Below, in pieces: positions 5,154 through 42,955 of a stretch of DNA of 64,000 bases. The stretch's first letter is position 1. Each line of letters starts with the position of its first letter. The position numbers and the translations under genes are program-made. The notes beneath the pieces were generated by a model. That model made no database searches. It saw only the letters and a program-made list of their open reading frames with translations, and was not told where the DNA came from. The stretch is taken from NCBI GenBank assembly GCA_951406725.2, contig OX597826.1, positions 77,500,001 to 77,564,000 of the forward strand. Direction: 5' to 3'. The DNA is from Octopus vulgaris. Its lineage: Eukaryota.

Positions 5154-6463
5154 ATATACATACATATATATATATATATATGTTGTTATGAACACATACA
5201 CATGTGCTTAAGTACATGCAAACATTGAGACACATACAAAATACATGTCATACACACATGCATACAAATTAAAAAATAACAAACAAACAAACCAACACCG
5301 AAATATATGGAATAATGGTATTTTGGGATATTTTTTTCTTCAAGGGAAGAAATCTTTCGATGAAACTGTAATCGTTATAACATTATCATCAACATCATTA
5401 TTATAATTATTATTATCATAATTATTATTATTATTATAATTATTATTCATTTTTATCATATTTTTTTCGTATAACATTTGTTTCTTTGTAGTTTTTCTTG
5501 TTTCATTTTGTTAGGTTTTTTTTTTCTTTTCTTTTTTTTGTGTTTGTTTTCTTAAACAGTAAAGAAATGGTCAGTGTTTAAATGGCAACACCACATTGGT
5601 CTTGGGTCTGGTCACTAGGTCCTTGCAGACCACACACACACACACACACACGCACATACATACACACACATGTAACACACCAAAATATACACACATAACA
5701 TACTGGTTGTGGCCCTGTGACAAGTGTATGTGCGTGTGTAAGGGAGGGGCACAGATTTTTAGATCGAAGGGTCCAAAATGTAAGACCAAGAAAGAGATAA
5801 GGAGAGAGAGAGAGATAAAGAGAGGGGGATGGTTAGAGAAGAGAGATTTGTAGGGGTGCGGTGGTGGTGGTGATAGAGGCAGAAAGCCGAAATAGTCCCT
5901 AAAATCTTTCAGTTCAACCCCTCCTGCCCCTACACCTTGACTGAGGTCTGACAAGATGTTACTGTTGTTTCTTATTTGGGGGTGTCTGAAAGGGGCAGGG
6001 AGTTGTGGAGGTGGAAGATAAGGGTGGAGGATGGCAGGTGCATATTTGGGGTGGGATGGAGGGGTGGATAATTATTTTCTCTCTGGTTGGGGGGGGGGGC
6101 GATGAGGAGGAAGTGGGCCAGTGGAAAGGAATAAATGGGATTTCAAATAGAGGGGAGAAGATGATGGTCAAGGAAGGGCCATTAGGGACTCAGAGACTTT
6201 TCATTAGAGCTGGGGGTGGGTGGGGAGTAAGATGTAAGGGGGTATATAAAACTCAAAGATGAATGTTTGTGTGTGCGTATGTGTGTGTGAGTGTGGTTTG
6301 GTGTGGGTGGTTGTGTGGTGTGTAGCATGGCAGAGCCATAGCGCCAGGAATGAAGGAATTAGAAAAAAAAATTTTTTCAAGAGTGGGATAGAGAGAGAGG
6401 GAGAGAGGGAGAGACAGAGAGGGATAGAGAGACAGAGAGAGAGAGAGAAAAGCTGAAAGAGTT

Positions 6464-6603
6464 TCACAAAGCAACCAAGAGGAGAATGAACAACAGGGAA
6501 AGAAAAGAAGCACCATGGCAACAAGATGCGGAAATCGGTTCAATAGGTTTAATATCCTCCCCTGCACGGTTTGGGACGTGAACATTCTCTGCTTTGCGGG
6601 GAC
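6464..6603 (-). CDS. Avidin-like gene, terminal coding exon with GPI-type signal (GPRKAENVHVPNRAGEDIKPIEPISASCCHGASFLSLLFILLLVAL*)
   Basis: ttttttttcttgcag acceptor. GPRK....HVP.R matches the domain-1 tail GPRKEKDTHVPER. Small residues (SAS) and a spacer precede a 13-residue hydrophobic end and TGA. Confidence 0.85.
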
Positions 6604-8354
6604 CTGCAAGAAAAAAAAGAAAACAATTAATCATCATCATCATCGTTTAACGTCCACTTTCCATGCTGGCATGGGTTGGACGATTTTGACTGAGGGCTGG
6701 CAAACCAGGAGGCCACCCCAGGCTCCAATCTGATCTGGCAAAGTTGGATGCTACAGCTGGATGCCCTTCCTAATGCCAACCACTCCGAGAGTGTAGTGGG
6801 TGCTTTTATGTGCCACTGGCACGAGGGCCAGTAAGGCGGTTCAGGCAACGACCATGCTTAAAAGGTGTTTTTTACGTGCCACCTGCATGGGAGCCAGTCT
6901 GGCGACACTGGCAACAACCACACTCGAATGTTGTTTTTCGCATGCCACCAGCTCATGTGCCGCTAAGGCGACGCTGGCAATGATCACACTCGAATTAATG
7001 AAATAGAATAAATGATATAATTTAAACAATACATAACAGAAACACAAAAAAGGGGACAATATCAGATTCTCTCCTTCACCAAAAAAGCCAGTGACAAAAG
7101 AAGGGCCATTGAAAAGGTGATAACACTGGTGATGTCCCAGTAAGGCCACAGTCTTTGGAGCTGAAACACATGTACATATAGAAATAATGATCCAGCAAAA
7201 GCTGTATACCTGCACATCTTCAGGTGAGTAGATGTATAATATTTCTATAATAATATGTGAAACACTTTGTAACTAACAGCTGATTCTAATGCACAAAAAG
7301 CAATTGTTGTGATTTGGATGAAAGCTTGTTCATTCCTACTTTTTGTACTATGAATATTTTTTTGTATGAATTCCGCAGGAGTGGCTGTGTGGTAAGTGTC
7401 TTCTACTATAGTCTCTGGCAGACCAAAGCCTTGTGAGTGGATTTGGTAGATGGAAACTGAAAGAAGCCCGTCGTATATATGTGTGTATATCTTTCTTCCA
7501 TGGAATCTAATGTGCTTGGCTTAGATTTTCCTTTGGGGCTGGCCAGATTGGAGCAATCTCAAGATTAATCAGCCAAAATTGCGAGGATGATCCGGTTCTT
7601 GACTGAAGATTGAAGGCTTCGAATGTCCCGTCCGTGTTTTTTGTATCGTCTTCTAAATGTTTTGCTTTCTTGTCCCAGTTTGTATTTTTTTAGATATATA
7701 TATATATATGTGTGTGTGTTTGTGTATGTTTGTCCCCGCAACATCGCTTGACAACCTTCTGCTGGTGTGTTTACGTCCCCGTAACTTAGTGGTTCGGCAT
7801 AGGAGACCGACAGAATAAGTACTAGGCCTACAAAAAATAAGTCCTGGGGTTGATTTGCTCAACTAAAGGCAGTGCCCCAGCATGGCCACAATCAAATGAC
7901 TGAAATAAGTAAAGAGAATATGCTAATGCATTTCCACATGTAAATATATAGACGTAGGGGTGGCTGTGTGGTAAGTAGCTTGCTTACGAACCACATGGTT
8001 CTGGGTTCAGTCCCACTGCATGACACCTTAGGCAAGTGTCTTCTACTATAGCCTTGGGCCGACCAAAGCCTTGTGAGTGGATTCGGTCACCTTGGTCTGT
8101 TGGCTGTGGACAGCTGACACTTCCATCATACCCAGTAAAATTAGCTGTGAGTTTTCATATAATAATAATAATAATGATGATGATGATGATGATGGTACCT
8201 GCTGCCTGTTCATATCTTGTAAATGTATTTACTCCATATAACGTAGATCTCCAGTGGTCTTGACATTTGTCAATGGACTGCCACAGAATCCATCTCATCT
8301 CCAGTGTGTCCATTTGTTCCAATGCACATGTGGAGTGGCACTGACCTGTAAGCG

Positions 8355-8389
<35 letters not shown>

Positions 8390-9881
8390 GGGTCTGTTAG
8401 AACAAAAATACCATAAAACAGCAATTCAGGAACTCATACAAATTTCCCTATAATAATATTCTGATTGTCACATTATGTGTTCAAGTGTTATACCATAAAC
8501 AACCTTAACTATAGAACTAAAGACAAAAATCTTTAACCCTTTCTTTACTGTATTTATTTTGAGATGCTCTGTTTTTTCTTTCAATTATTTTAAATATAAC
8601 AAAGAATTTAGTAAAATAACTTAGTTATCATTCAGCTAGTGTTAGGAACGTAAATTGTGACTAAGGTTTGGTGGAAGATTTTAATTCAAAACTTATGAAA
8701 ACAAGACATTTGTACTCAGAGCCAGAGGCAGTTTCAGCCAGGTTGGTAATGAAAGGGTTAATAGAACAATGTTGAGAAGCACAGGCAAGAAATTGGCTCC
8801 ACAACCACATGGTTCCATGAAATACAAACTTAAATACAAGAATTCAATACATAACAGTGGTGCCATTCCAAATTTGTGGTCTGTTGCATCTATTTTAGAA
8901 ATCAATATTCATATTAATTAACAAGCAATAACTAATTAATCACATATATTTGTAATTCATATACTTCAAATGCAAGACAATTAAGCAAGATTTTTCTCTT
9001 GTTTTATGTAAAGAGGACCGGAATCTGTGGATTCTTTCAATTGTTGAAAGATTAAAGTGTGTGTGTGTGTGTGTGTGTGAGGCCCCACTGCTAGACAACT
9101 GGTGTTGCCTTGTTTACATCCTGTAATTTTGCAGTTTGAGTGAAAGAGACTGATGAAATAAGCACCTGGCTTAAAAATGAATACAGGAGCCAATCTTGAT
9201 TGACTAAACTCTTCAAGGCATTGCCCCAGCATGGCCAGAGTCCAGCACTTGAAATACAGGTAAGTAGTATTCAATGTACAGTTTTCAGAGGCAACAATCT
9301 GCAATCAGCAAGCCCTTTTTATACATTTGCCACCTTTTCCACCTTTTATCTATTAGTTTTCACTTTACATAAAAAAGTGCATAATCTTAAAGAAAGGAGA
9401 CATAACCAATCTATAATATTTTATTGCAACTGAACGACAAAAGGGAAGATTTAACATATTCATTTGTATCAGAGAAAACTTCCCTTGGCCCCACTTCCAC
9501 CTCCTTCTCATTCCATTAAGGCAGGGGGGTTCCAACCTTTTCACTATTAAGGACTCCTTTTATTTAAATGAATTTTCCCATGGTCCCCAGGATATTGAGA
9601 AGTCTGTCAGCTTAACATGCTCACAGACCCCCACCAGTACTACCATTGCAGACTGCCATGGGTCTGCAGGCCACAGGTCGGGAACCACCACATTAAGATA
9701 TGCTAAAGCTGTCAGTCAATCAATGAATAAAATATTAAGAGTTGTTATTTACATTTGACAGATATTTGTCCTCGTCTTGTTTGTTGTTAACACAGCGTTT
9801 CGGCTGATATACTCCCCAGCCTTCATCAGGTGTCTTGGGGAAATTTCAAACCTGGGTTCTCATTCCTAAGGTATTTTTCAA

Positions 9882-9918
<37 letters not shown>

Positions 9919-11754
9919 ATCACTGCCTGGAATCGAACTCGGAATCTTGGGGTTACTGGCCCACGCTCTTAACCATTATGTCATATGTCCTCTTAACCAC
10001 TATGCCTTATGGCGTAGTGGTTAAGAGGGCGGGCTACTAACCCCAAGATTCCGAGTTCGATTCCAGGCAGTGACCTGAATAATAATAATAATATCGAAAA
10101 ATACCTTAGGAATGAGAACCCAAGTTCGAAATTTCCCCAAGACTCCTGATGAAGGCTGGAGGGTATATCAACTGAAACGTTGTGTTAACAACAAACAAGA
10201 TGAGGACAAATATCCATCAAATGTAAATAATGTAAATAATTCCGCATCTCTTAAATATAGAACTGTATTATTAAGAGTTGTCTCCCCTAGTATAGATTTC
10301 AGATTTTATTCCATTCCAGTCTTTTAATGTTCCAAGTTCTGCCGTGGACTTTCAACAATCTGGACTAGTACCAGTTATGGTTTTAGCCCCAGGTTAACCT
10401 TTATCCAGCAGCTGGGCAATGGGGTCAATGTCAGTAACTTTAACTCCCCTATAAAATTCCTGGAAACTATGCCAAAATTTTAAACCATTATTATTATTAT
10501 CATTATGAAGGCAGCAAGCTGGCAGAATCGTTAGCATGACGAATGAAATGCTTAGAGGTATTTTGCCCATCGTTATGTTCTGAGTTCAAATTCCTCCCAT
10601 GTCGACTTTGCCTTTCATCTTTTCAGGGTCAATAAAATAAGTACCAGTTATGCACTGGGGTCAATGTAATCGATTTACTCTCCCACCACCCGCAAATTTC
10701 AAGTCTTATATGCCTATAATAGAAATTATTATTATTATTATTATGAAGGCACTCCAGGTATTTCATCCGTCTTCATGCTGTGAGTTCAAATTCTGCTGTG
10801 GTTGACTTTGATTTAAATCCTTTCAGATTAAAATAAGTACCAGTTATACACTCAGGTCAATGCAATTGACTTACATTACCTCCAAACACGCACACAAATT
10901 TCAGGCCTTGGGTCTTCAGTAGAAAAGATTATTATTATTATTATTATTATTATTACTACTACGGTGGCAAGATGGCAAAACTGTTAACACCAGAAACAAA
11001 ACGCTTAGTGGCATTCTGGGATCAAATTCTGCCAAGGACAACTTCGCCTGTCATCATTTCAGGGGTGATAAATAAGTACCAGTTATGCACTGAGGAGCAG
11101 TGTAATCGTCGAAGCCCCTCCCCCAAAATTGCTGGCCCTGGGTCAAAAATTTCAAATCATCATCATCAACATCATCGTTTCTGTTGCTATTGCAAGTGAA
11201 AGACATTCCAGTCGTGACTACCCCACCTTATTTTCAAACTCAGCATAACTAAGCTTGTGTCACAATACCAAAGAATTTTAGTGTTTTTCTTTTTTAACTT
11301 AGTAGGCTGTGATGTGAGGGAGACTTGGCTGTTATCTTTGGCATGCCAAGTGCCCTCATTTGTTCAGTACCCTACTATTATTCTAAGCGCAATCATCTTA
11401 TCCCCTGTATACGTTCCTTTTTGGTTTTTTACATCAATGTTTGTTCATGTAAACATGGATGAAGGAATGGTTTATTTCTTGCAGCATTTATTCCTGCAAC
11501 TGGATGCTGCATGGCTGTCCAACTATTAATAATTCGAAGATTACCATTTTTAAATCTCACAACGAGAGATATTCAACAACACCATTCTTTGGAGTAAAGC
11601 TTGTTTGCCAACATAACATGGCAGTCCTGGTTTAGGACGAACGTTGCCGTAATTTAGCCCCAGGAGACATCGTCACCTCTAGCCGAACAATTATTCTGTG
11701 CTGATGAAGAGAAATAACCCAGAAATCGTGATACACAGATATTGTTTTGAGCAA

Positions 11755-11792
<38 letters not shown>

Positions 11793-14552
11793 TCGAAAGA
11801 TACCTTAGGAATGAAAGCTCTGGTTTAGGACTAATGTTGCCGTAATTTAGCCCCAGGAGACATCGTCTCCAGCTAGCTATACAACACGATCTGTGTCCTT
11901 ATATTTTCAAACAAGGGAATCTAGCACCCCTACTCAGCCATCTGTGTGTAGCCCCTTGTGGGTAGTAAAGAAATATGTATTTCGTCTGTCTTTACGTTCT
12001 GGGTTCAAATTCTGCTGAGGTCGACTTTGCCTTTCATCCTTGCGGGGGTCGATAAATTAAGTACCAGTTACGCACTGGGGGTCGATTTAATCAACTGGCC
12101 TCCTCCCCCTAGAGTAGTAAACGTTATCTGTTTATCGTGATTTCCAGGTTATTTCCCTACATCAGCACGTTGTGAGATTTAAAAATAGTAATTTTCTAAT
12201 TCATAGATCAGTGACTAGTTGTCACTTTGGAAACTATATATTTCGAACGGGAATTTGGCAGCGCCACCTCTAGCCGAACAATTATTCTTTGCTGATGAAG
12301 GGAAATGACTCGGAAATCGCGATACACAGATATTGTTTTGAGCTGAGTGGGGGTGCTAGATTCCCTTGTTCAAAAATATAAGGACACAGATCGTGTCGTA
12401 TAGCCAGCTGGAGACGATGTCTCCTGGGGCTAAATTACAGCAACATTAGTCCTAAACCAGGACTGCCATGTTATGTTGGCAAACAATCTTTACTATTAAT
12501 AATTCACCTTAACCAAAGTTAAGTTACTTGCTCAAGAAGGATCACAAAATAGTTGTGAAGTAAAATCTTGAAATTTCCCACAAAAAAGGGGCAGAGACTG
12601 TGGTTGTGCAGTTAAGAAGTTCACATTGTAAGTATGTGGTTTCAGGTTCAGTCTCACTCTGCAGCACCTGCCAATACACCTCGTGAGTGAGTTTGGTAGA
12701 TGGAAACTGTTAGGAAGCCCATCATACACACACACATTTCATATACATATATATATGGGGGAAGGTTCTCTGTACCCCTCACCATCACTTGACAACTAGT
12801 GTTGGTTTGTTTACATCCCCATAAGTGGATGACCAAAAGAGACCAACAGAATAAGTCTTACAAAAATAAGTCCTGGGATCAATTTGTGGAGCTCCAGTAT
12901 GGCCACAGTCTAATGACTGAAATAAAAGATACAGATATGGTCAATAGCAGATCCCTGCAAACCTCAAGAGCCCCTGAGCCTCACATCTATTAACTAATGT
13001 TTACTCTGTATAAGACAGAAAACTGGCAGAAGCGTTAACACGCCGGACAAAATGCTTAGTGGTACTTTGTCTGTCTTTACATTTTGAGTTCAAATTCCAC
13101 CGAGGTCGACTTTGCCTTTCATCCTTTCAGGGTCGATTAAATAAGTACCAATTACGCACTGGGGTCGATATAATCGACTTAATCCGTTTGCCTGTCCTTG
13201 TTTGTCCCCTCTGTGTTTAGACCCTTGAGGGCAATAAAGAAATAGGTATTTCGTCTGTCTTTGCCTTTCATCCTTTGGGGGTCGATAAATTAAGCACCAC
13301 TTGTGTACTGAAGTCAATCTAATCGATTGGCCCCTCCCCTAAAATTTCAGGCCTTGTGCCTAGAGTAGAAAAGAATATTTACTGTGTCTATTGACCTGTA
13401 TTTAATAATATTAAGTGTTTACTCACCTACAAATCCAGTTACTGATTCACCATTTCTCCACACTACATGGAATCCAAATGTTGAGTTTGGTTCATGGAAA
13501 TTACCGATGCCATGGACGAGAGAGTGAGTATTTCCTGCAGCTCCTGGACTTTGTTCCACAGCAGTTCGGTACTCACCTAAAATAAATAAATATATCATTC
13601 TGTTTATCTTAAAATCATGGATATACAATAGAAAGCCACAAAACTGTGATATTCATCTCGAGAAAGCATCTCATTTAGATGGAGAGAGTTAAAGAATAAC
13701 AAAAGCAACAGTGAAAAGAATCCCAGGGTGGGAATTGTTAAATCTAAATTTCTGCATCTTTGAGTGCTATTAATGCATTCGTGCTGAAATTTTTCTATTG
13801 AATGAAATTGCCTGAAAATTCACAGATACCATTATTTTGACTTGAATAACAACTGAAAAAAATTTAATTGAAATCCGTTTGATACAGACTGCGTACGTGT
13901 TAAGAACAGGTTTCATTCTTTGATACAGATCATACACAAATCACAATTTGCATCAAGTATTTGTTTTACACCCTTATAAATTAAGGGTCAGTTTAAGCAG
14001 ACGATCGGCTTGAATGCGTTAATAGCAAATATCCACCAACAAATGCATGCCTTTGTCAAATTTAACCCAAACTGATATGGGCAAACAGTAATTGAGAAAT
14101 TACTCGTGTAGAAGATAACTGGTGAGCTGGATACAAATTTGAATTATCGTCATCATCATTGTTTAATGTCGATTTTCCATGCTGGCATGGGTTGGATGGC
14201 TTGACAGGAGCTGGCAAGTTGGAAGACTGCGAAGCTCTGCTGTCTGCTTGCCGTCCTTTCTACGGCTGGATGCCCCTTCGAATACCAACCACTTTACAGA
14301 GTGTGGACTGGGTGCTTTTTATGTGACACCAACAGCAGTATCACACACAAGAAAGCAGTGCAAAAAAAGTGGAAAAAAGAACAGTTGAGGCGCAGGAGTG
14401 GCTGTGTGTGGTAAGTAGCTTGCTAACCAACTACATGGTTCCGGGTTCAGTCCCACTGCGTGGCATCTTGGGCAAGTGTCTTCTACTATAACCTCGGGCC
14501 GACCAAAGCCTTGTGAGTGGATTTGGTAGACGGAAACTGAATGAAGCCCGTC

Positions 14553-14589
<37 letters not shown>

Positions 14590-17500
14590 TGTGTGTGTTT
14601 GTGTGTCTGTGTTTGTCCCCCTAGCATTGCTTGACAACTGATGCTGGTGTGTTTATGTCCCTGAAGTGACAGTTTTGTTCAACATTTTTGTCAGACAGTT
14701 CTGTCTGACAATATATTCACGCATAATACACATTAACACTACAGAAGGCACATAGGTGCAATCACACTAGAAAATATACGTTTGTTTAAAATAGGTGGGG
14801 ATGATTTGAAAGAGATTTAGCTAACGGTACAGGGGAGACAACTTTCTTATATAAATAAGAGTTATCTCCCTTGAAGTCTTTAAACGTTATGGACAGTTAA
14901 AAGGAGGTTTTAGACATTTCGCAGAAGCAAAAAGCGTTTACGGCAAACGGTTTGTGCATACCTGTCTGTGACCAACTTAAACATGAGGGCATAGTAAACT
15001 TATTCCATCGTCCCGTTTATCACAAGCACCTTCTCCTAAGCTGTCTTCAGTACCGCGGTTGCTATATTTAGATAGTATTTCTGGGACGCAAAATATTTTT
15101 TCCCCACGGGAGTTCCTGACCCCGGTTATGAACTCATTTGCATACAGCAAATCTGGGCTCAGCTATCAAACTAATTTATGAGCGCCCAACAAGTGATGGG
15201 AGATAAGGTAAGGTCACTTGGGTAAGGAATGACCATGCTTCTTTTCTCTTTTAAGAATGCTTGTTTTCTCTTTTAAGAATGCTTAAAAATAATAATAATG
15301 AAATTATTGTATACAGTGCTCAGGTGCACCACAACTTGTCAGAAAGTGCATATAAAGTACATGCAGTAATGTAGAAATGTCTGGAAAGCGAACAATGTAT
15401 GAGTCAGATACATGCTTGTGTGTGTATGGAGGGGAGAAAATCAAGTATAGTGTTGGCGAATCTCAGGAAGCATGGAAGTTTTGAAGGATGCAGTGCTCCG
15501 ACAACTAACAACTGATGCTGGCAGTTTGTTCCATGCTTCAGCAACTCTCAGCGTGAAAAAATGTTTCCTGAAGTCATGGGAGCTGTGCTGTTTTCTTACT
15601 TTGTAAATATGTCCACTGGTGTTAGATGGGTGGAGTTTGAAAAGGTGCTCAGTGTTATTGTTTGTGCGATGGTTGATAATTTTAAGGGTGTCTGCCAGGT
15701 CAGCTGCCAGACGTCGGAGTTTCAATCTATCCATGTTGTTCTTGTTCATGTTTTAACCATGGCTGCCTCTGAGTAGTTATTTGTGTTGTTGTTTACTTTG
15801 TAAGACAGCAAAGGGAGAGGGTTGCTAGCATATCACTCTCTACCCACATCTTTACCACATGGGGCCCTAACAAAATCCGATAATAGGTATGGATGAAAAT
15901 CTATCTAATTATTTGTCTCCTAACTTGGCCATCGGTCAACTTACAACTGTTCTTCGTCTTCAGTTTACTTGGTAGAGTGTGTCTGTTAAGTTGATAAGGT
16001 CATAGTGAGCTCTGATTGGCTGTATGCAAATGAGTTTATTACTGGGGTCCGGAACTTTCGTGGGAAAAAAAAAATTCGCTTCTGGGGACAGAGGATAGCT
16101 TCCACTTTTCTCTCTCTCCAAACAGATCTCAGGTTACTGAAACTTCAGAGATGCTATTAAAACAGGGACAAAAAAAAAGGGAGGTGGTATGCTGCTACAT
16201 TGTAGATCTGCCCAACCCACACGTTTATCCCCACCATAACCAAATATTAAGAATTAAGCCAAATATAGAAGAATAAATAAAACCAAAAATGAAATCAGCA
16301 ACTACGTTCAGAAAGCAAATACCCCCAGAAAGCAAATATAGAAAACCATGCATTGAAGACACCCAGCAGAGATTAGGAAGGGCTGGGTACCTCAACCACT
16401 TAGCCATGCACCTTCACCAAAAAAGTCACATCATGTTTTAATGCACAAAATCTCTGTTCCTGAATATGTGCAGCTGAAATTGGAATGCACTGAATATGCC
16501 AGGTGTTTGTTATGTCATCAAATATGGGACATTTATTTAAAAAAAACAAAAAAAAAACATTTGCATACAAATCCATTAAAAAATAATAAAAATAGGGGAA
16601 GAAAATGGAAACAATCATCATTATCATTATCACCACCACCACCACCACCACCATCATCAGTGGTGTCGGGCGTCAACGAAGAGCCCTCGACTGCAACAAG
16701 ATGACCAAAGTTTTTTTTGTTTTTTTTTTTCCTAAGGTCTGGGATCTCCTGCCCCTAAGCCCTAGACCATCACCTAATCACCCTTACTCGTCTTGTTGCT
16801 TAACAACAACAACCATCAGTAGCAGCAGTCACAGCGTTACGGAAACGAGGAAGAGACGTATGGGGAAGGAATTTGAAAGAAGAGCAATTTCAAATCGTTA
16901 AATTATTTACGAGGATAGAGAGAAGAAAAGAACAGAAAAGAGAAGAGTATGAAGCTGTTACCTTTGATTATACCGGCATTGTCTTGTTTGAGTATAACCT
17001 CTGAACCAAGCTCATTGTACCATGTTCCCTCTAGTTTACACGGCGGTGTGGCTGATTCTGAAAAGCAAGAACACATGAGTTGATAAGAATTTCTTAAACG
17101 GTAGGCTTTGATAATGCCACAGAGAAGTCTAGTCAAGGTTTTCTTCAATTCCAATATTTGTGGGGTGGCAATGGAACTACTGGAGAACGCTTTCATTCTC
17201 AACAACCTTTTGAGTATGAATGGGGTTTCTTCTTAAAACCAAAGATGAATGGTAAGAGCAGTTGTAGGAAATTGTACCGTAAACATTTTTGCCATAGGAA
17301 AATTCACCATAAAAAAATATATTCACTACCAAAAAGTATATTCACTGTCAAAAAATATATTTTCCGTTAAAAAATATATTCTCTGTCAAAAAATGTATTC
17401 TCTGTCAAAAAATATATTTACCATCAAAAAATATATTCTCCATCAAAAAATATATTCACTACAAAAAAATATATTTACCATCAAAAAATATATTCACCGT

Positions 17501-20500
17501 CAAAAAATATATTCTGTCAAAAAATATATTCACTGTCAAAAAATATATTGTCAAAAAATATATTCACCGTCAAAAAATATATTTATCATCAAAAAATATA
17601 TTCACTACAAAAAAATATATTTACCGTCAAAAAATATATTCTCCGTCAAAAAATATATTTACTGTCCAAAAAAGAAAAAAAAAGATTAGCCATTTTCTTA
17701 AAATGGTAACTTCAACTAATCTTCTAATTAGAGAAAGATAATTTTTTTTTTAAGTGAATCATTGAAGTTTGCAGTCAGCGACATTTGCTACAGCAAATTT
17801 TCCCACATGAAAAATGTTTACGATGAATTTTCTGGACATGAGTGAGAGCATAAGAACATGTGAAGACTTGTCTATATGCAGAAAAAGAATGAGATTTTGA
17901 AGTGATTTGAAACTGTGAAACAAGTTTACTTCGTGCCATTAAGCGCAGCGAGGTGGAAGTAAGGTGTTGTTGAACCCCATGTCTGCCATGACCAAGCAGG
18001 CTTGCAATCAAAAGCATTCCATTCATGACCATCCCATCTTTTTGCTTAGAGGTAATGCAGTACCATGGACTAAATTATCCAATATATTATTCTTAAGACA
18101 ACTGAAAGTGATTTAAAGGCTACGATTGGTGTGCAGAGCTAACAGAGAAGTGATGAGCAAAGGCTAAGGGGCAATAAATGAAGCTGAGTTAGTTATAGGG
18201 ACAACATTTCTATCCAGTTCCTATCGACACTATGTGCCACTCTGACACCCACATCTGCCAACCACACTGAGCAGGGCCACTTACTCATTGCTGCCGCTGG
18301 ACGGTGTTGTGGGTGGCGTTCTTTGCCAGCACTGGACAACCTGTTAGGTTTACGTTTGGCGAAATTCCTATAGAATCCATGTGAGTCATACTTCTTCCAT
18401 CGGGTGTCAGTGCTCTCCCGCAGCAGTGGTTCCCATGATTCTGCAACAAGAACCAGGTTATTCTGCATAGAGAAACTGACATCACAGAAATATCGGATTT
18501 TTTTTTTAAAAAAAAACAATTCAAATAAACTCTTTTATTTTTTTTTTTCAGAATTTCAGATCAGAGTTGGGGGTTTAAATATTAAAAATAAAAATAAAAG
18601 AAACAATTATATACAACAGGCTTCTTTCAGTTTCCATCAACCAAATCCACTCACAAGGTTTTGGTCGGCCTGAGGCTATTGAAGGGGACATCTGACCAAG
18701 GTGTTGTGCAATGACACTGAACCCAAGACCCCATGGTTGTGAAGCAAGATTCTCAACCACACAAACTGTGCCTATATTTTCCCAGTTAAAAGTTGATTGA
18801 TAAAGATTTCAAAGAGGTCAGTGTTACCAATGAGTTTGAGATGGTGTGTGTGTGTGTGTGCGTGTGTGTGTGTTAGATAGATAGATAGACAGAGAGACAG
18901 ATAGATGGATAGATAGACAGACAGACAGACAGACAGATAGATAGATATGTTTCTTTATTGGCCACATAGGGCTGAACACAGAGGGGACGAAATACAAAGT
19001 AGAGCTTTTCTTTTTGGGAAGAAGAGGAAAAAAATAAAAGTGGATCGAATTTCGATCAAAAGATAGATAGATTGATAGACGATAGTTAGATAGATAGATA
19101 GACGATAGATAGATAGACAGACGGATGGCTGGATAGATAGATACTACCTCAAAAGCACCCAGTACACTCTGTAAAGTGGCTGGGATTAGAAAGAGCATCC
19201 AGCAGTAGAAGCCATACCAAAGCAGACAATGGAACTTGGTACATTACTATGACTGACCAGTTCCTGTCAAACCAGCTGACCCAAGCGGTTTTATACGAGT
19301 ACCAGTGTGTGCATAGGTGTGTGTGTGTGTGTGTTTGTATATACACAGTCAAAAGTGATTAAGTTTACTACGAACGCAACTCTGTAAGCTGTTGCTGGTG
19401 CCACACACATCCAAAACTCCAACATTATATTATTGCAAAGATACAAATATGGAAAGCCCAGATCGAAAGGAATTGCTCAACCATGCAGCCACATTGAAAA
19501 ACAAAAAAACAAAAATAAAATGAGGATTATCTTTTAATCTTTAACTTGCTCCAGTCTTTAGACTGCGTCCATGCTGGAGCACAGCCTTAAAGAAATTTTA
19601 GTTGAATGAATGAACCCAATTGCTTACTTTTAAATCTGTTGCTTATTTTATCAGTTTCCTTTAGCCAAATTGTTAAGGCATGGAGATGTAAACACACCAA
19701 TGCCAGTTGTCAAGCAGTGGGGTGGAGGGCAAACAGACAGCCAGACAGACACCCCTTCCCACATATGGACAACGGGCTTCTTTCAGTTTCCTTGTGTCAA
19801 ACCCACTCACAAGAATTTGGTTGGATCAAGGCTACAGTAGAAGACACTTGCCCAAGATGCCATGCAGTGGGACTGAACCCAGAACCATGTGGTTGGGGAG
19901 CAAGCTTCTTATCACACAGCCATGCTTGCACCTATTGTGGCAAGGAAACTGAAATGATGTCCTGAAATCAATGCATTTCCTAATAATAATAAAAATAATA
20001 TTTGCCGGGTCAGAGTGCTTGTATTTTAATATAGCATTGAGTAGTTTGAGGGTGACTTTGATATTATTTCTAGCTTCCTCTGAAGGACTGACTTGGTAGG
20101 TTCCATAATGAAGATGGTGCTGTTCTAGAAGAGACTTACCTGGTAAATTTGACAGTTTCACTAATGGTTTCATAGATTTGTCACTTGAAGAAGAATAATT
20201 CTACAAGAAAATAAAATACACTTTAGTATATGTGTGTATATTTGTGATTATATATGTGTGTGTATATGTTGGAGGGGAGTAGTCATATGTGTACACAATA
20301 AATTTACACACAAATTACATTTGGAATGAGTAAAATATCTTTTAGTGCTAATGGCAATTATTGTCAAGAGGAGCAAGGGAGACAACCCAAAAATGTTAAT
20401 TCAAAAAAACCAATATGCAGTAAAAGAGTAAATTGAATTTTTGTCAGTCATTTTACTTAATTGTTAAATGAGTGAAAGATTGTCTCTCAAAAGACTAAAG

Positions 20501-23500
20501 ACTAATGCATGAAGAAAACTGTGTTGAATCCTTTAGGATTTAAACCGGTCATGTCCTGCTCAAATATTCTTGCTGTTTTATGTTCAAACTGGCCATATCC
20601 AGCCTCTCACACTTACTCTACAATGACATTCTAAAAATAAACAATTGAAATCTAAAAGCTATGAGATAATGGCAAGATTAATTCAAAACTATGTGAATAA
20701 ATGATCGTTACATTTGACAACAACCTGACTGTTATGGAGGTAAACCACAAGTGAAAAAATATCTCACTCGTCAAGGGAACATTCTATGAAAGTCAAACAA
20801 GTGCAGTACATGAAGCAGTGAAGTGGCAGCCATGAAAGCAGTGGACATATTTGTTCCAGCTCTCGGCTGTCTAGGTTCAAATCCAGCTAAGGCCAACTGT
20901 GTACTTTCGGCCTTTTGGGGCCAATGAGATAAAGAACCAGAACAGGGTGAGAGATTGGTAGGGGTTCTTTGGGTGCTAGAGTGAAAAAAAGAAAAAAAAC
21001 TAGAACTAATGCTGCAAGACATCTTGTGTAAGTTCTTGGGTGGTAGACTGATGCCATTCACCTGGTTTATTAGCGCCACCTGGTCCTTGACTATTTCCAG
21101 CAAAGTTTATTATGTTCCAAGTTTCTGATTTGAGGGCAACTTCTTCTCTCTGTCCCACCTATCATGGAGTCTCTAAAAAAATTAAAGATCAAGGCTACCA
21201 CCCTTCCTTACCTAACTAAATGGTTAAAACAAACATAAACACACTTGTTCAAAGGTGATTAGGGCTTGGGTTGCAACAACAGACTCTATTTTAAGCACAA
21301 TTGTGGCAATTTTGAGGAGTGGGGTAAGTTAATATCATTAACTTCTGGATTTGATTGGCACTTTATTTCACTGACCCCAGAGTGATGAAAGGGCAAGTTG
21401 TCACTTGTGTGATTTGAACTGAGAACATTAGAAAATTCATAATACCACAAGGCATTTGATCTCACTTTCCAAAGATTCTGCCAGTTTACTGTCAAATAAC
21501 AAAAATAATAAAATAATATTCATACTAATACTACAACTCTTTTCTACTCTAGGCCGGTGGGGGGGGAGTCAATTAGATCGACCCCAGTATGCAACTGGTG
21601 CTTAATTTATCACCCCCAAAAGGATGAAAGGCAAAGTCGACCACAGTGGAATTTGAACTCAGAATGTAAAGACGGACAAAATACAGCTAAGCATTTCGCC
21701 CGGCGTGCTGACATTTCTGCCAGCTTGCTGCCATTCTACTACTACTACTACTACTAATAATAATAATAATAATAATAATCCTTTGTACTATAGGCACAAG
21801 TCCTGGAATTTGGGGGGATGGGGATAGTCGATTACATCAACCCCATTACACAACTGGTACTTATTTTATCAACTTTGAAAGGATGACAGGCTAAGTCTAC
21901 CTTGGAAGAATTTGAACTCAGAGCACAAAGACAGACGAAACACTGCAAAGCATTTCGCCCAGCGTGCTAATGTCTTTGCCAGCTTGCAGCCTTGGAATAC
22001 TGTTTTCTACTCTAGGCACAAGGCCCGAAATTTGGGGGAAGGAGGCCGGTTGATTAGATTGACCCCAGTGTGCAACTGGTACTTAAATTATCCACCCCAA
22101 AAGGATGAAAGGCAAAGTCGACCTCGGCGGAATTTGAACTCAGAACATAAAGACAGACGAAATACATATTTCTTTACTACCCACAAGGGGCTAAACACAG
22201 AGAGGACAAACAAGGACAGACAAATGGATTAAGTCGATTACATCGACCCCAGTGCATAACTGGTACTTAATTTATTAACCCCGAAAGGATGAAAGGCAAA
22301 GTCGACCTCGGCGGAATTTGAACTCAGTACGTAACAGCAGACGTAATCCTGCTAAGCATTTCGCCCGGCGTGCTAACGTTTCTGCCAGCTCGCCACCTTT
22401 ATATAATAACAACAACAACACCAGTAATATATGTATGTCGGCTCCATAAAATGATTATACAAAAAAGAAGGAAATAAAGAGGATGAAAAGACAGTTGTTT
22501 ATACATACTGATGGTCGTTCCGGGACGTGTGTATCTTTTTCTTTTCGAGGACCAGGTTTCTGTTCATAACGTGTGAAAATGTCACGGCCTATTCTGTTTG
22601 ATTTCCATTTATCATCACAGCTACTTGCCTGAGAGTGTAAGAGCCAGGTGGTCAAAAGTTTCTCGTGCCCTCCGAGGCACACGACACACTGACCTGCAAC
22701 ACAAAAGAGAATCCAGGCACATGAGTATAGAAGGACAGATATAAATACATACATCTATATGTGTGCATACACACAAACATATATATCACATATACATACA
22801 TACATATATAAACATTCGTATATATATATATATAAACATACACACAAAAAATATACACATATCATCATCGTTTAACGTCCGTTCTCCATGCTAGCATATA
22901 TATACGAATATAAATATATACATATGTACATACACATATACACACACGTATATACATATGCACACATATGTACATACATGTGTACACATATATATATATA
23001 TATATACATTTTAAATGATGATGATGATTATATATATATATACATATGTACATACATATATATACATCCTATATTGTACATAAATGTAAATATATATATA
23101 TTATATACACACACAGATATGTACATGCATATACATACACATTATACATATATACACATATATATTTTTCATGGTTTCATTTAGACATAGCAATATTAAT
23201 AAGAAGCTGCTAGAACTCATCTGCTCCAGAATAAAGCAAGAGGCAAATACAGAGCATTATGGGAAATAATTGACGAACAACAACAAGAGAACAATAATCA
23301 AGTGATCGACTTCATAAGCTTACTGCTGTTTCTGCTATGACACACAACCACTCTGCTCTGAGAATTCACTGTACCTTAAAGCAGAAACAACTATAAGCCA
23401 ATGATTATATAATTCCTGTTTTCTTGCCTTTCAACCAATATATCATCACCATCATGATCACCACCACCACCACCACCACCACCACCACCATCATCATCAT

Positions 23501-42250: not shown

Positions 42251-42955
42251 TTGGTCTTCATATATATACATTTGTTCTATGTGAACAATGTAGTAAAGTT
42301 TTCCCTGAAGAACTGTTGTGGATCTGCACACAACTGCATTATATACACCCACTGCAGAGAATGCAAATAACCACAAAGCACACAGGCAGGGACAAATGGT
42401 ATAAACGGTATGTTGTATTTCTCCTGCTTGGTTCTATTTTGACTCTGGATACCAAAACCAGTAAATACCATTAAGTACAGTTGTAACCACACCACTTAAC
42501 TGCAAACAGAATGGATGGTGATTATCTATGTGGTGCTCCAAACTCCACAGTAGCACTTGCACAGCTCACTGTACACACAAGGTATATACACAGACACACA
42601 CAGATATATACAACATATATAACATACACAGCAACTGTACTGAATGAACAAAAGCCAATACACTGCAAGAGAAACGGTCGGCAGTATTGATGTCCAGAAG
42701 AAAAGATTTCTCCTTACACAAATGTCCATTTCATATTTCATATTTTACGAGATCAATGAAATAAATGGTATTGGAGAAAATACAGGACTCGCTATCTTTG
42801 ATTAAAATATCCTTTGATGGTTGTAGCCATGTTGTGCCATGGTCCGACGAATAACTAAAGGAAAATTAGTTTACCTGTCCAAATTGTAGTTGACCGGCCA
42901 TGACTCCAAACCACTGAAAATCCAAAAGCTGCACCTGGACTTTTAGGAGCGGTAC
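6464..42955 (-). CDS. Tandem avidin-domain protein with a predicted GPI-anchor signal (spliced, 5'-incomplete). Exons: 42955-42875, 22693-22509, 20200-20140, 18440-18285, 17057-16962, 13576-13427, 8345-8199, 6603-6464
   Basis: Eight AG/GT-bounded exons (81, 185, 61, 156, 96, 150, 147, 140 nt) join with matching phases and no internal stop. Avidin motifs: CKLEGTWYNELGS, GEYRTAV, FGFxVVW, TxxFxGQC, WxL, W(K/R)S..G.(N/D).FTR. The C-terminal half of the domain occurs twice. The protein ends in a hydrophobic tail and TGA. Confidence 0.9.
6630..6995 (-). mobile_element. SINE family C with a (GAT)n tail (RTE-type 3' end)
   Basis: catcatcatcgtttaacgtccactttccatgc...ggatgcccttcctaatgccaac. Other copies at 40685-41102, 43400-43560, 56063-56215 and 61660-61955. 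Confidence 0.8.
7375..7917 (+). mobile_element. SINE family A copy with an about 200-bp insert in its internal microsatellite
   Basis: 5' part at 7375-7485 and 3' part at 7695-7917 match family A; unrelated sequence at 7490-7692. Confidence 0.75.
8199..8345 (-). CDS. Avidin-like gene, exon for the C-terminal half of domain 2 (GQCHSTCALEQMDTLEMRWILWQSIDKCQDHWRSTLYGVNTFTRYEQAA)
   Basis: (tctt)n polypyrimidine tract with cttacag acceptor and gtacc donor; 147 nt, phase 1/1. Paralogous to exon 22693-22509. Confidence 0.92.
8537..8757. mobile_element. piggyBac-type MITE
   Basis: TTAA TSDs at 8533-8536 and 8758-8761; termini CCCTTTC...GAAAGGG. Confidence 0.75.
9522..9690. mobile_element. hAT (Charlie-like) MITE
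   Basis: 8-bp TSD cattaagg/cattaaga; termini cagggggg-ttccaacct ... aggtcgggaaccacca. Confidence 0.6.
9746..10268 (+). mobile_element. Palindromic non-autonomous retroelement: tRNA-like head, (AAT)n, hammerhead-containing tail, preceded by an inverted copy
   Basis: Arms 9746-9990 and 10010-10230 are reverse complements. 13-bp TSD TATTAAGAGTTGT at 9733-9745 and 10269-10281. A box (tggcgtagtgg) and B box (gagttcgattcc). CTGATGA..GAAAC motif in each arm. Confidence 0.8.
9789..9834 (-). ncRNA. Minimal hammerhead ribozyme motif
   Basis: Reverse complement reads GACAC-CTGATGA-AGGCTG..CAGCC-GAAAC-GCT-GTGTT; the cleavage triplet is mutated. Confidence 0.55.
11536..12491. mobile_element. Mosaic retro-insertion of scrambled, bidirectional fragments with three hammerhead motifs
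   Basis: 14-bp TSD ACTATTAATAATTC at 11522-11535 and 12492-12505. 11595-11675 and 11820-11940 are inverted relative to 12345-12490. Hammerhead motifs at 11696-11738 (+), about 12130-12168 (-) and 12287-12329 (+). Confidence 0.75.
11696..11738 (+). ncRNA. Hammerhead ribozyme motif (second family)
   Basis: CTGTG-CTGATGA-...-GAAA-TCGTGA-TA-CACAG. The sister copy at 12292-12329 has the palindromic stem III ATCGCGAT. Confidence 0.6.
13020..13375 (+). mobile_element. SINE family B copies (MetaSINE-like)
   Basis: ctggcagaagcgttaacacgccgg...gagttcaaattcc...gactttgcctttcatcctttc. Confidence 0.8.
13427..13576 (-). CDS. Avidin-like gene, middle exon of domain 2 (GEYRTAVEQSPGAAGNTHSLVHGIGNFHEPNSTFGFHVVWRNGESVTGFV)
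   Basis: attttag acceptor and gtgagt donor; 150 nt, phase 1/1. Contains the GxYxTAV and TFGFxVxW motifs. Confidence 0.93.
14388..14662 (+). mobile_element. tRNA-derived SINE, family A (internal TA/GT microsatellite)
   Basis: A box tggctgtgtgg, B box ggttcagtccc, and a CORE-like cttgggcaagt. Many copies in the window. Confidence 0.85.
15081..16086. mobile_element. Non-autonomous TIR element (about 80-bp imperfect TIRs) carrying a nested LINE fragment
   Basis: 15090-15170 (ttttttccccacgggagttcctgaccccggttatgaactcatttgcatacagc) is the reverse complement of 16005-16075. Confidence 0.6.
15290..15750 (-). mobile_element. CR1/L2-like LINE 3' end (5'-truncated)
   Basis: ORF 15441-15749 carries LKLRRLAADL...GHIYKV...FRKHFFTLRVAEAWNKLPASVV, typical of the CR1-group ORF2 C-terminus. 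An (ATT)n tail follows. Confidence 0.8.
16962..17057 (-). CDS. Avidin-like gene, exon for the N-terminus of domain 2 (SATPPCKLEGTWYNELGSEVILKQDNAGIIK)
   Basis: ttttcag acceptor and gtaac donor. CxLxGxWxNxLGS is the canonical avidin N-terminal motif. Confidence 0.93.
17290..17670. repeat. Minisatellite, about 19-bp unit (aaaaaatatattcaccgtc), about 20 copies
   Basis: Visible tandem periodicity. It gives rise to the spurious ORF 17249-17689. Confidence 0.9.
18285..18440 (-). CDS. Avidin-like gene, linker exon (ESWEPLLRESTDTRWKKYDSHGFYRNFAKRKPNRLSSAGKERHPQHRPAAAM)
   Basis: cttgttgcag acceptor and gtaagt donor; 156 nt, open in phase 1/1. GC-richer than the surrounding intron. Confidence 0.72.
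   Translation of the reverse strand, partial: NHGNHCCGRALTPDGRSMTHMDSIGISPNVNLTGCPVLAKNATHNTVQRQQ
18874..19143. repeat. (GATA)n/(GACA)n tetranucleotide tracts with an about 110-bp insert
   Basis: Visible tetranucleotide repeats. Confidence 0.85.
20140..20200 (-). CDS. Avidin-like gene, linker exon (NYSSSSDKSMKPLVKLSNLP)
   Basis: tttcttgtag acceptor and gtaagt donor. At 61 nt and phase 0/1 it exactly bridges the phase of the flanking exons. No homology support. Confidence 0.65.
21540..22398 (-). mobile_element. Cluster of four or more SINE family B copies (MetaSINE-like central domain)
   Basis: Repeated gactttgcctttcatcctttcggggtcgataaattaagtaccag on the minus strand with a gagttcaaattcc B box. 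More copies at 10505-11150, 13020-13375 and 52455-52720. Confidence 0.8.
22509..22693 (-). CDS. Avidin-like gene, exon for the C-terminal half of domain 1 (GQCVVCLGGHEKLLTTWLLHSQASSCDDKWKSNRIGRDIFTRYEQKPGPRKEKDTHVPERPS)
   Basis: gttgcag acceptor and gtatgt donor; phase 1/0. Strong match to the avidin C-terminus (GQC...LKTMWLL...DDWKATRVGINIFTR). Confidence 0.92.
25912..26217 (-). mobile_element. tRNA-derived SINE, family D
   Basis: The minus strand begins tgaaggcacatggctcagtggttcagg...gagttcaattcccag (A and B boxes). A related head lies at 33303-33490 and a related fragment at 60-260. Confidence 0.7.
27378..28263 (+). mobile_element. Decayed, internally deleted Tc1/mariner-superfamily transposon (probably maT/DD37D-like)
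   Basis: Transposase remnants MVFGVTTSDG, YLWQQDAAPCHT and PPNSPDSNPLDYYVWG with an in-frame stop. Right end ...cacaccctg-TA. Confidence 0.8.
31115..31609 (-). mobile_element. Second copy of the palindromic tRNA-head/hammerhead element, in the opposite orientation
   Basis: Same sequence family as 9746-10268. TSD AGGATTACAGTA at 31103-31114 and 31610-31621. Confidence 0.8.
31517..31562 (+). ncRNA. Minimal type I hammerhead ribozyme motif (Penelope-like)
   Basis: GACAC-CTGATGA-A-GGCTG(gagggtatat)CAGCC-GAAAC-ATT-GTGTT: stem I and stem II pair. Family consensus from the four arms is GAAACGTT. Confidence 0.7.
34025..34425 (-). mobile_element. SINE family A copy
   Basis: Reverse complement of the family A consensus. 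Confidence 0.8.
34928..35405. repeat. Inverted pair of SINE family A 3' halves around (TA)n
   Basis: 34928-35125 is the reverse complement of 35205-35405. Confidence 0.85.
36440..36600 (-). mobile_element. Possible 3' end of an REL-endonuclease non-LTR element (HERO-like)
   Basis: KIGLEAKQLKIAHKEIRIVAEVRSSWLWLTRDHKW resembles the AE.AS.WLW..R...W C-terminal motif (recalled, not searched). Confidence 0.35.
37540..38790 (+). mobile_element. Decayed mariner (Mos1-like, DD34D) transposon, near full length
   Basis: MEVTKEHIRHILLY, WVPHKL, IVTGDEKWVLYKN and HLPYSPDIAPSDYHLF, with frameshifts and stops. Imperfect TIRs ccataaatagtgcagtttttt / aaaaaacgcattatttatgg. Confidence 0.88.
39890..40283 (-). 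mobile_element. SINE family A copy
   Basis: Reverse complement of the family A consensus. Confidence 0.85.
40685..41102 (+). mobile_element. SINE family C copy with an internal tandem duplication
   Basis: aaaagcaccattcgagcgtgatcattacctgcatcgccttac occurs twice; ends gttaaacgatgatgatg. Confidence 0.8.
41796..42207 (-). mobile_element. SINE family A copy
   Basis: Reverse complement of the family A consensus. Confidence 0.85.
42875..42955 (-). CDS. Avidin-like gene, exon in domain 1 (GTAPKSPGAAFGFSVVWSHGRSTTIWT)
   Basis: tttgcag acceptor and gtaaac donor; phase 1/1. FGFSVVW...STTIWTG aligns with avidin TFGFTVNW...STTVFTG. Confidence 0.88.

Follow-up and report, generated by a model that had tools for sequence, protein, structure and literature searches.

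We find that a 64,000-nucleotide stretch of Octopus vulgaris DNA (contig OX597826.1, positions 77,500,001 to 77,564,000 of the forward strand; hereafter the window), which is intron-rich and animal in character, encodes on its minus strand the C-terminal part of a protein with two avidin barrels, domain 1 (D1) and domain 2 (D2). The reading that we favor, and that we hold to be probable though well short of certain, is that positions 8199 to 17057 carry the second barrel of a spliced two-barrel avidin, likely attached to the cell surface by a glycosylphosphatidylinositol (GPI) anchor, two chains of which would together form four pockets and bind biotin with nanomolar to picomolar affinity. The main interest of the protein probably lies in this natural, probably anchored and disulfide-locked two-barrel architecture and not in the conservation of its residues, which taken alone is ordinary.

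The first-pass annotation of this region had recognized D2 from six short motifs, all of which lie on the minus strand between 8199 and 17057 (Table 1). Each of the three D2 exons is flanked by AG and GT, and the peptide of each matches the Pfam family Avidin, PF01382 (E 4.7e-4, 2.8e-7 and 5e-5); two of the three pass the curated cut-off singly, and five of five exon peptides match the family profile. Joined by their coordinates, the seven exons in the window, from 42955 to 6464, give exactly the C-terminal 285 residues of the O. vulgaris protein P0002, and addition of an optional 156-nt exon (18440-18285) yields the last 337 residues of P0001, which is isoform X1 of Octopus sinensis LOC115218420. 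The peptide of D2 exon 2 is 100% identical to both proteins. Residues 1-88 of P0002 (signal peptide and N-terminal half of D1) are encoded by exons outside the window, and this 5′ part is taken from database proteins only. Intron-free exon junctions were found in contigs from four of four sequencing runs (four studies; runs presumed to be RNA), with the last four coding exons all on one contig in three runs and three exons in one run. Given the PF01382 matches, the exact join to P0002 and the intron-free contigs, the motifs of the D2 exons are not a product of chance.

Nineteen pocket positions of avidin were compiled from PMC3811995 and PMC2761383 (papers are cited here by PMC number, each for the portion of its text that was accessible). 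All 14 avidin residues named in the first-pass annotation are present in D2, and HMMER alignments to solved avidin chains, free of gaps over W70-C83 and W97-F120, uphold the equivalences. The wider statement that D2 retains essentially the full biotin-binding set stands for these 14 but not for all 19 positions, since five differ: T38>E236, A39>Q237, T40>S238, F72>N270 and S73>G271. These five, all changed in D2, make up the valerate-side set of the chicken-avidin-type femtomolar pocket, and they leave five of the eight residues on the valerate side altered. The ring-system residues are kept without exception (11 of 11: N12, L14, S16, Y33, T35, V37, T77, F79, W97, W110 and N118), W70, S75 and L99 are kept beyond that set, and D2 also carries a K111>R change. 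Like chicken avidin (PF01382; 1AVD/2AVI), D2 has the positions of the C4-C83 disulfide and is predicted to form an eight-stranded antiparallel beta-barrel, with a template modelling (TM) score of 0.82-0.83 to chicken avidin; over avidin and zebavidin chains the predicted models score 0.82-0.87, and the ESM Atlas returned generic avidin clusters only, at 0.81. Unlike chicken avidin, the octopus protein has two unlike barrels per chain, extra cysteines at avidin positions 86 and 106, a C-terminal tail and a hydrophobic end.

D2 is not special within the protein, as D1 keeps the pocket set too. Nine of its ring residues are identical to avidin and the other two are F79W and N118D, which are common substitutions (PMC3811995); otherwise the same 14 positions are kept. 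The idea of D1 as a dead domain, which holds for some relatives among the cnidarians, was therefore rejected for octopus. Counted over relatives at these 14 positions, 716 of 728 pocket cells match in D2 and 440 of 485 in D1 (52 of the 58 rows of the alignment; here and below, partial or misaligned rows were left out), and we infer that the D2 pocket is the one under stronger selection.

The first-pass annotation had also set D2 against the avidin-like domains of sea-urchin fibropellins, which are reported not to bind biotin (cited in PMC8033661), and this contrast is borne out. Fibropellins belong to the same invertebrate branch of the family and share the cysteines at 86 and 106, but their single barrel is preceded by epidermal growth factor (EGF) repeats and lacks W70 and W110. 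The two residues are missing in five of five EGF-repeat rows (Lytechinus fibropellin-3, P0112, and four others) and present in both octopus domains. Changes of these two tryptophans are reported to virtually abolish biotin binding by avidin, and residue counts are said in the same source to be no reliable predictor of binding (PMC8033661). Because W70 and W110 are kept and the pocket is so widely matched across relatives, D2 is, as far as its sequence tells, likely to be a true biotin binder.

The protein runs from a hydrophobic N-terminus through barrel 1, a tail and a linker (25-64 residues in most relatives) to barrel 2, followed by another tail and a hydrophobic C-terminus. PF01382 is the only domain on record for P0002, with its two barrels, and 169 PDB sequences match P0002, avidin 1AVD among them with E 2.3e-19. 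The layout of signal peptide, two barrels and GPI-like hydrophobic tail recurs in anthozoans and annelids. A hydrophobic C-terminal end is found by hydropathy in 49 of 57 rows, and the protein is likely, from the character of its ends, to be secreted and GPI-anchored at the cell surface. Furin-type cleavage of the linker was considered and rejected for the family, as the site R-x-K/R-R occurs in only six of 57 rows and not in octopus; in those six (P0027, P0037, P0045, P0047, P0049 and P0056) a cut, if real, would leave the barrels held together by the predicted cross-domain disulfides described below.

As the full-chain AlphaFold model (predicted TM score 0.73) superposes across both barrels on single-chain dimeric streptavidin 6S50 (Z 27.1, 230 residues, 2.4 Å), the two barrels are predicted to lie against each other as a pair of subunits does in the streptavidin tetramer. 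Single-chain dimeric streptavidin (6S50, 6S4Q) and dual-chain avidin (2C4I) likewise have two barrels per chain, so that a pair of chains would hold four pockets, of two types, but these are laboratory constructs, made with a 26-residue linker and H127C or by circular permutation, whereas the octopus protein is natural and unpermuted and has predicted cross-domain disulfides and complementary 1-3 residues of its own. Beyond the pair known from avidin, for which C39-C117 and C203-C281 would form the usual intra-barrel disulfides, each barrel has two cysteines at or adjoining avidin positions 86 and 106. All four extra cysteine sites are readable in 44 of the 58 rows: 32 rows keep all of them, two lose one, and none loses a within-domain pair, while D1-C106 is lost together with D2-C86 in six rows and D1-C86 together with D2-C106 in four. 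These two sets form separate clades in a quick tree (support 100 and 99), and the losses, which run in opposite directions, both cross domains. Among 80 further avidin domains, 49 have both extra cysteines, 27 have neither and four have a single one. The loss of the extra cysteines as cross-domain pairs in two clades suggests that D1 and D2 are joined by disulfides C120-C306 and C140-C285, and the model favors bonds within a chain over bonds between chains.

Two further patterns concern the contacts between chains. W110 and K111 are contributed by subunit 2, and the residues of the 1-3 contact are M96, V115 and I117 (PMC1282572). W110 is lost in four of 41 rows (of 58), always in D1 and together with damage to the D1 pocket while D2 is intact, and it is lost from D2 in none of the 41. 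Position 117 is R or K in D1 in 41 of 53 rows (of 58) and E or D in D2 in 36 of 53. Taken together, the cysteine losses, the W110 losses and the charges at position 117 suggest that unlike barrels meet in the 1-4 and 1-3 contacts and like barrels in the 1-2 contacts. The assembly that we propose would be one in which D1 and D2 of one chain form the large 1-4 interface, locked by the two predicted disulfides. Where two such chains associate, the W110 equivalent of each barrel would close the pocket of its counterpart in the other chain (D1-D1′ and D2-D2′), and D1 would make the 1-3 contact with D2′. The resulting pseudo-tetramer would have two faces, one with the two D1 pockets and one with the two D2 pockets.

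The most likely purpose of such an assembly, by analogy with other animal avidins, would be to retain free biotin at the cell surface, out of the reach of microbes, and the main alternative would be biotin uptake for the animal's own use. An antimicrobial, secreted role is considered probable for animal avidins, and the lancelet avidins Bjavd1/2 are described as infection-induced opsonins (PMC8033661). The lancelet Branchiostoma proteins P0007 and P0008 resemble the octopus protein in loop, cysteine pattern and tail, but they are single-barrel, soluble and lack the hydrophobic C-terminal end. A bolder proposal, which we put forward only tentatively, is that of an ancient GPI-anchored biotin receptor extending from cnidarians to cephalopods, a disulfide-locked, two-faced pseudo-tetramer that would capture vitamin B7 either to take it up or to control microbial partners, much as the folate receptor does for vitamin B9 at the cell surface.

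Several points weigh against the anchored, two-chain biotin binder that we favor. An annelid member has, in place of the GPI-like end, a transmembrane helix followed by a cytoplasmic tail, and two Octopus bimaculoides models (P0003 and P0004) have different ends, with unrelated sequence after D2; their true last exon is probably missing. The paired cysteine losses amount to only two independent events, and two rows lose a single cysteine. Positions 86 and 106 are presumed to lie opposite each other at the 1-4 interface, across which Nordlund and colleagues reportedly engineered a disulfide into avidin (D86C/I106C) in 2003. The barrel pair of the model appears to be the 1-4 pair from its TM score to 2C4I and not from coordinates; that score is 0.45, which exceeds what one permuted half-barrel could give. 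The W110 losses represent about two events, nine further rows have D1 damage with W110 kept, and octopus D2 itself has V at position 117, not E. Finally, the conserved tail could plug a pocket.

This last point leads to an explanation that keeps the architecture but has the pocket normally filled by the protein's own GPRK..HxP tail, or else tuned to a different ligand (for example a biotinylated protein or a peptide), with weak affinity for free biotin. Of 57 rows, 50 have the tail after D2 and 11 have it after D1, with P132, R133 and P141 nearly invariant in an alignment of D2 and single-domain sequences, and the tail of bradavidin (Brad-tag) is known to lower biotin affinity from below 1 nM to about 0.28 µM (PMC3344845). 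However, the predicted local distance difference test (pLDDT) score of the tail is low (60-62 for the block in the full-chain model, and 66 and 53 in the model of D2 alone), and a peptide ligand would not require the polar ring-binding residues, all of which are retained; we consider this explanation unlikely.

The affinity of D2 was put higher in the first-pass annotation, which predicted a genuine high-affinity binder. Taken in the avidin sense, this would be femtomolar and practically irreversible binding, which we find unlikely, as that annotation omitted the five altered valerate-side residues, among them the lost F72 and S73. The L3,4 loop of D2, AVE-x-x-x-GAAG, aligns with that of zebavidin from zebrafish (PDB 4BJ8); the long loop with E38 and GAAG, the missing F72, the place of which is filled by A44 in zebavidin, and the ring residues are common to both. 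In the predicted model of D2 alone (pLDDT 83) zebavidin is the best structural match (TM 0.86) and takes six of the top seven rows. Zebavidin binds biotin with a dissociation constant of 2-5 nM and releases it about 100,000-fold faster than avidin. It differs from the octopus protein in being a secreted single-barrel homotetramer that has neither inter-barrel disulfides nor an anchor, and its L5,6 loop is one residue shorter than that of D2. On the other side, D2 has the 14 avidin-identical positions and the K111>R change, the inter-barrel disulfides would stabilize an assembly that is weak in zebavidin, and xenavidin, which differs at T38, A39 and F79, still binds extremely tightly (PMC2761383), a point against a zebavidin-like estimate. 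Single changes near the pocket shift the release rates of AVR proteins (PMC1282572), a further point against avidin-grade binding. We infer a zebavidin-like affinity in the nanomolar to picomolar range, moderate and not record. As W110 acts only in the neighboring barrel, isolated D2, which the first-pass annotation had proposed for binding assays, would be the wrong unit to assay. Least probable of all is that the barrels are only a scaffold for oligomerization or adhesion with relic pocket residues: the extra cysteine pair and its surrounding sequence are common to fibropellins, single-barrel echinoderm relatives bear the automatic name 'fibropellin-3-like' and D1 pockets have decayed in some cnidarians, but the D2 pocket is maintained across three phyla, the tryptophans lost in fibropellins are kept, and no EGF or other domains are present to oligomerize.

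Sequence searches found 68 and 92 relatives, and a search of cluster representatives yielded 572 with E no higher than 0.001. Two-barrel members were found in cephalopods (Octopus, Argonauta, cuttlefish), annelids (Owenia, Ridgeia, Paralvinella) and anthozoans (Nematostella, Actinia, Acropora, Montipora, Porites, Desmophyllum, Xenia, Dendronephthya), and no named bivalve or gastropod was among the 68 and 92 matches of the word-limited search, in which most rows carry no species name. In the domain tree all 16 second barrels (cnidarian, annelid, cephalopod and unnamed rows, including three first labelled D1; a Branchiostoma row was left out) form one clade, with a Shimodaira-Hasegawa-like approximate likelihood ratio test (SH-aLRT) support of 99, and the duplication that gave two barrels is for this reason probably single and old. 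Cephalopods nest weakly among cnidarians in a quick tree, but horizontal transfer from cnidarians to cephalopods is not supported, as a cephalopod plus annelid clade is not rejected (approximately unbiased test, p-AU 0.278, 15 rows). Outside the window, cephalopods have a second two-barrel avidin gene (O. bimaculoides LOC106867775, P0220; Argonauta LOC115218491, P0076), the proteins of which (533-536 residues) have a segment of about 140 residues before each barrel and no extra cysteines. Another two-part form, in the spider Argiope (P0091) and the similar rows P0094, P0113, P0116, P0122 and P0163, has a first barrel that looks intact and a strongly diverged second segment.

Table 1. Exons, motifs and other features of the two-barrel avidin gene in the window.
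Feature	Position	Strand	Content	Evidence
D1 middle exon	42875..42955	-	W70, S75, T77, F79>W equivalents	PF01382 match, exon join
Exon with D1 second half and first GPRK..HxP tail	22509..22693	-	C117, C120, W131, L133, C140, W144, R151, D152 of P0002	PF01382 match, exon join
Inter-domain linker exon	20140..20200	-		exon join
Optional 156-nt linker exon	18285..18440	-	in P0001, not in P0002	211-base contig
D2 exon 1	16962..17057	-	C203; N12, L14, S16 equivalents	PF01382, spliced contigs
Motif WYNELGS	17022-17002	-	D2 exon 1	
D2 exon 2	13427..13576	-	Y33, T35, V37, zebavidin-type L3,4 loop, W70, S75, T77, F79; F72, S73 changed	PF01382, loop alignment, spliced contigs
Motif EYRTAV	13574-13557	-	D2 exon 2	
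Motif VVWRNGES	13466-13443	-	D2 exon 2	
D2 exon 3	8199..8345	-	C281, C285, W297, L299, C306, W310, N318	PF01382, spliced contigs
Motif RWIL	8295-8284	-	D2 exon 3	
Motif DHWRS	8259-8245	-	D2 exon 3	
Motif GVNTF	8235-8221	-	D2 exon 3	
Last coding exon	6464..6603	-	conserved GPRK..HxP tail, spacer, hydrophobic C-terminus (GPI-signal-like)	
Stop codon	6466-6464	-	in last coding exon, beyond the first-pass span	
3′ untranslated region	5675..6463	-		partly covered by the same spliced contigs

The optional linker exon is basic and lies on a separate 211-base contig in three of the four runs. It contains HPQ, which we take to be a streptavidin-tag-like motif and ascribe to chance, as a similar insert in Argonauta has no HPQ. 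Just upstream of D2 exon 1 lies an AT-rich minisatellite of 19 bp (17302-17672, 19.8 copies), which accounts for an open reading frame of 146 residues on the plus strand at 17249-17689. The introns contain many high-copy repeats resembling short interspersed nuclear elements, with very high contig depth, and the open stretches 57913-57305 and 15752-15444 on the minus strand are presumably C-terminal remnants of reverse transcriptases of long interspersed nuclear elements.

We found no account of a natural tandem or anchored avidin, or of these gene identifiers, in the literature searched, most subscription journals and supplements lying outside that search. Two-barrel avidins appear in the accessible portions of PMC3105096, PMC3029397 and PMC7411666 as engineered constructs only. 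PMC8033661 states that avidins had not been found with other functional parts, except for peptidase fusions and extensions, and does not contain the words 'tandem', 'membrane' and 'anchor'; in the accessible portion of the octopus paper PMC10336842, avidin is mentioned only for fibropellin. The characterized animal avidins are soluble single-barrel tetramers. If the bolder receptor proposal is true, the octopus protein would, within the literature searched, be the first avidin with a membrane anchor and the first dual-chain avidin of natural origin. Two-barrel chains have been engineered so that the two pockets can be changed independently, and a natural self-locking two-barrel scaffold of set topology would offer a template for asymmetric avidin reagents and artificial metalloenzymes. 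We point out that the gene could cause background in biotin-based labelling of tissues from these animals. A surface biotin binder kept in corals, anemones, annelids and cephalopods would allow the choice between defence and vitamin handling to be put to the test in Nematostella, where the gene is present (LOC5500205).

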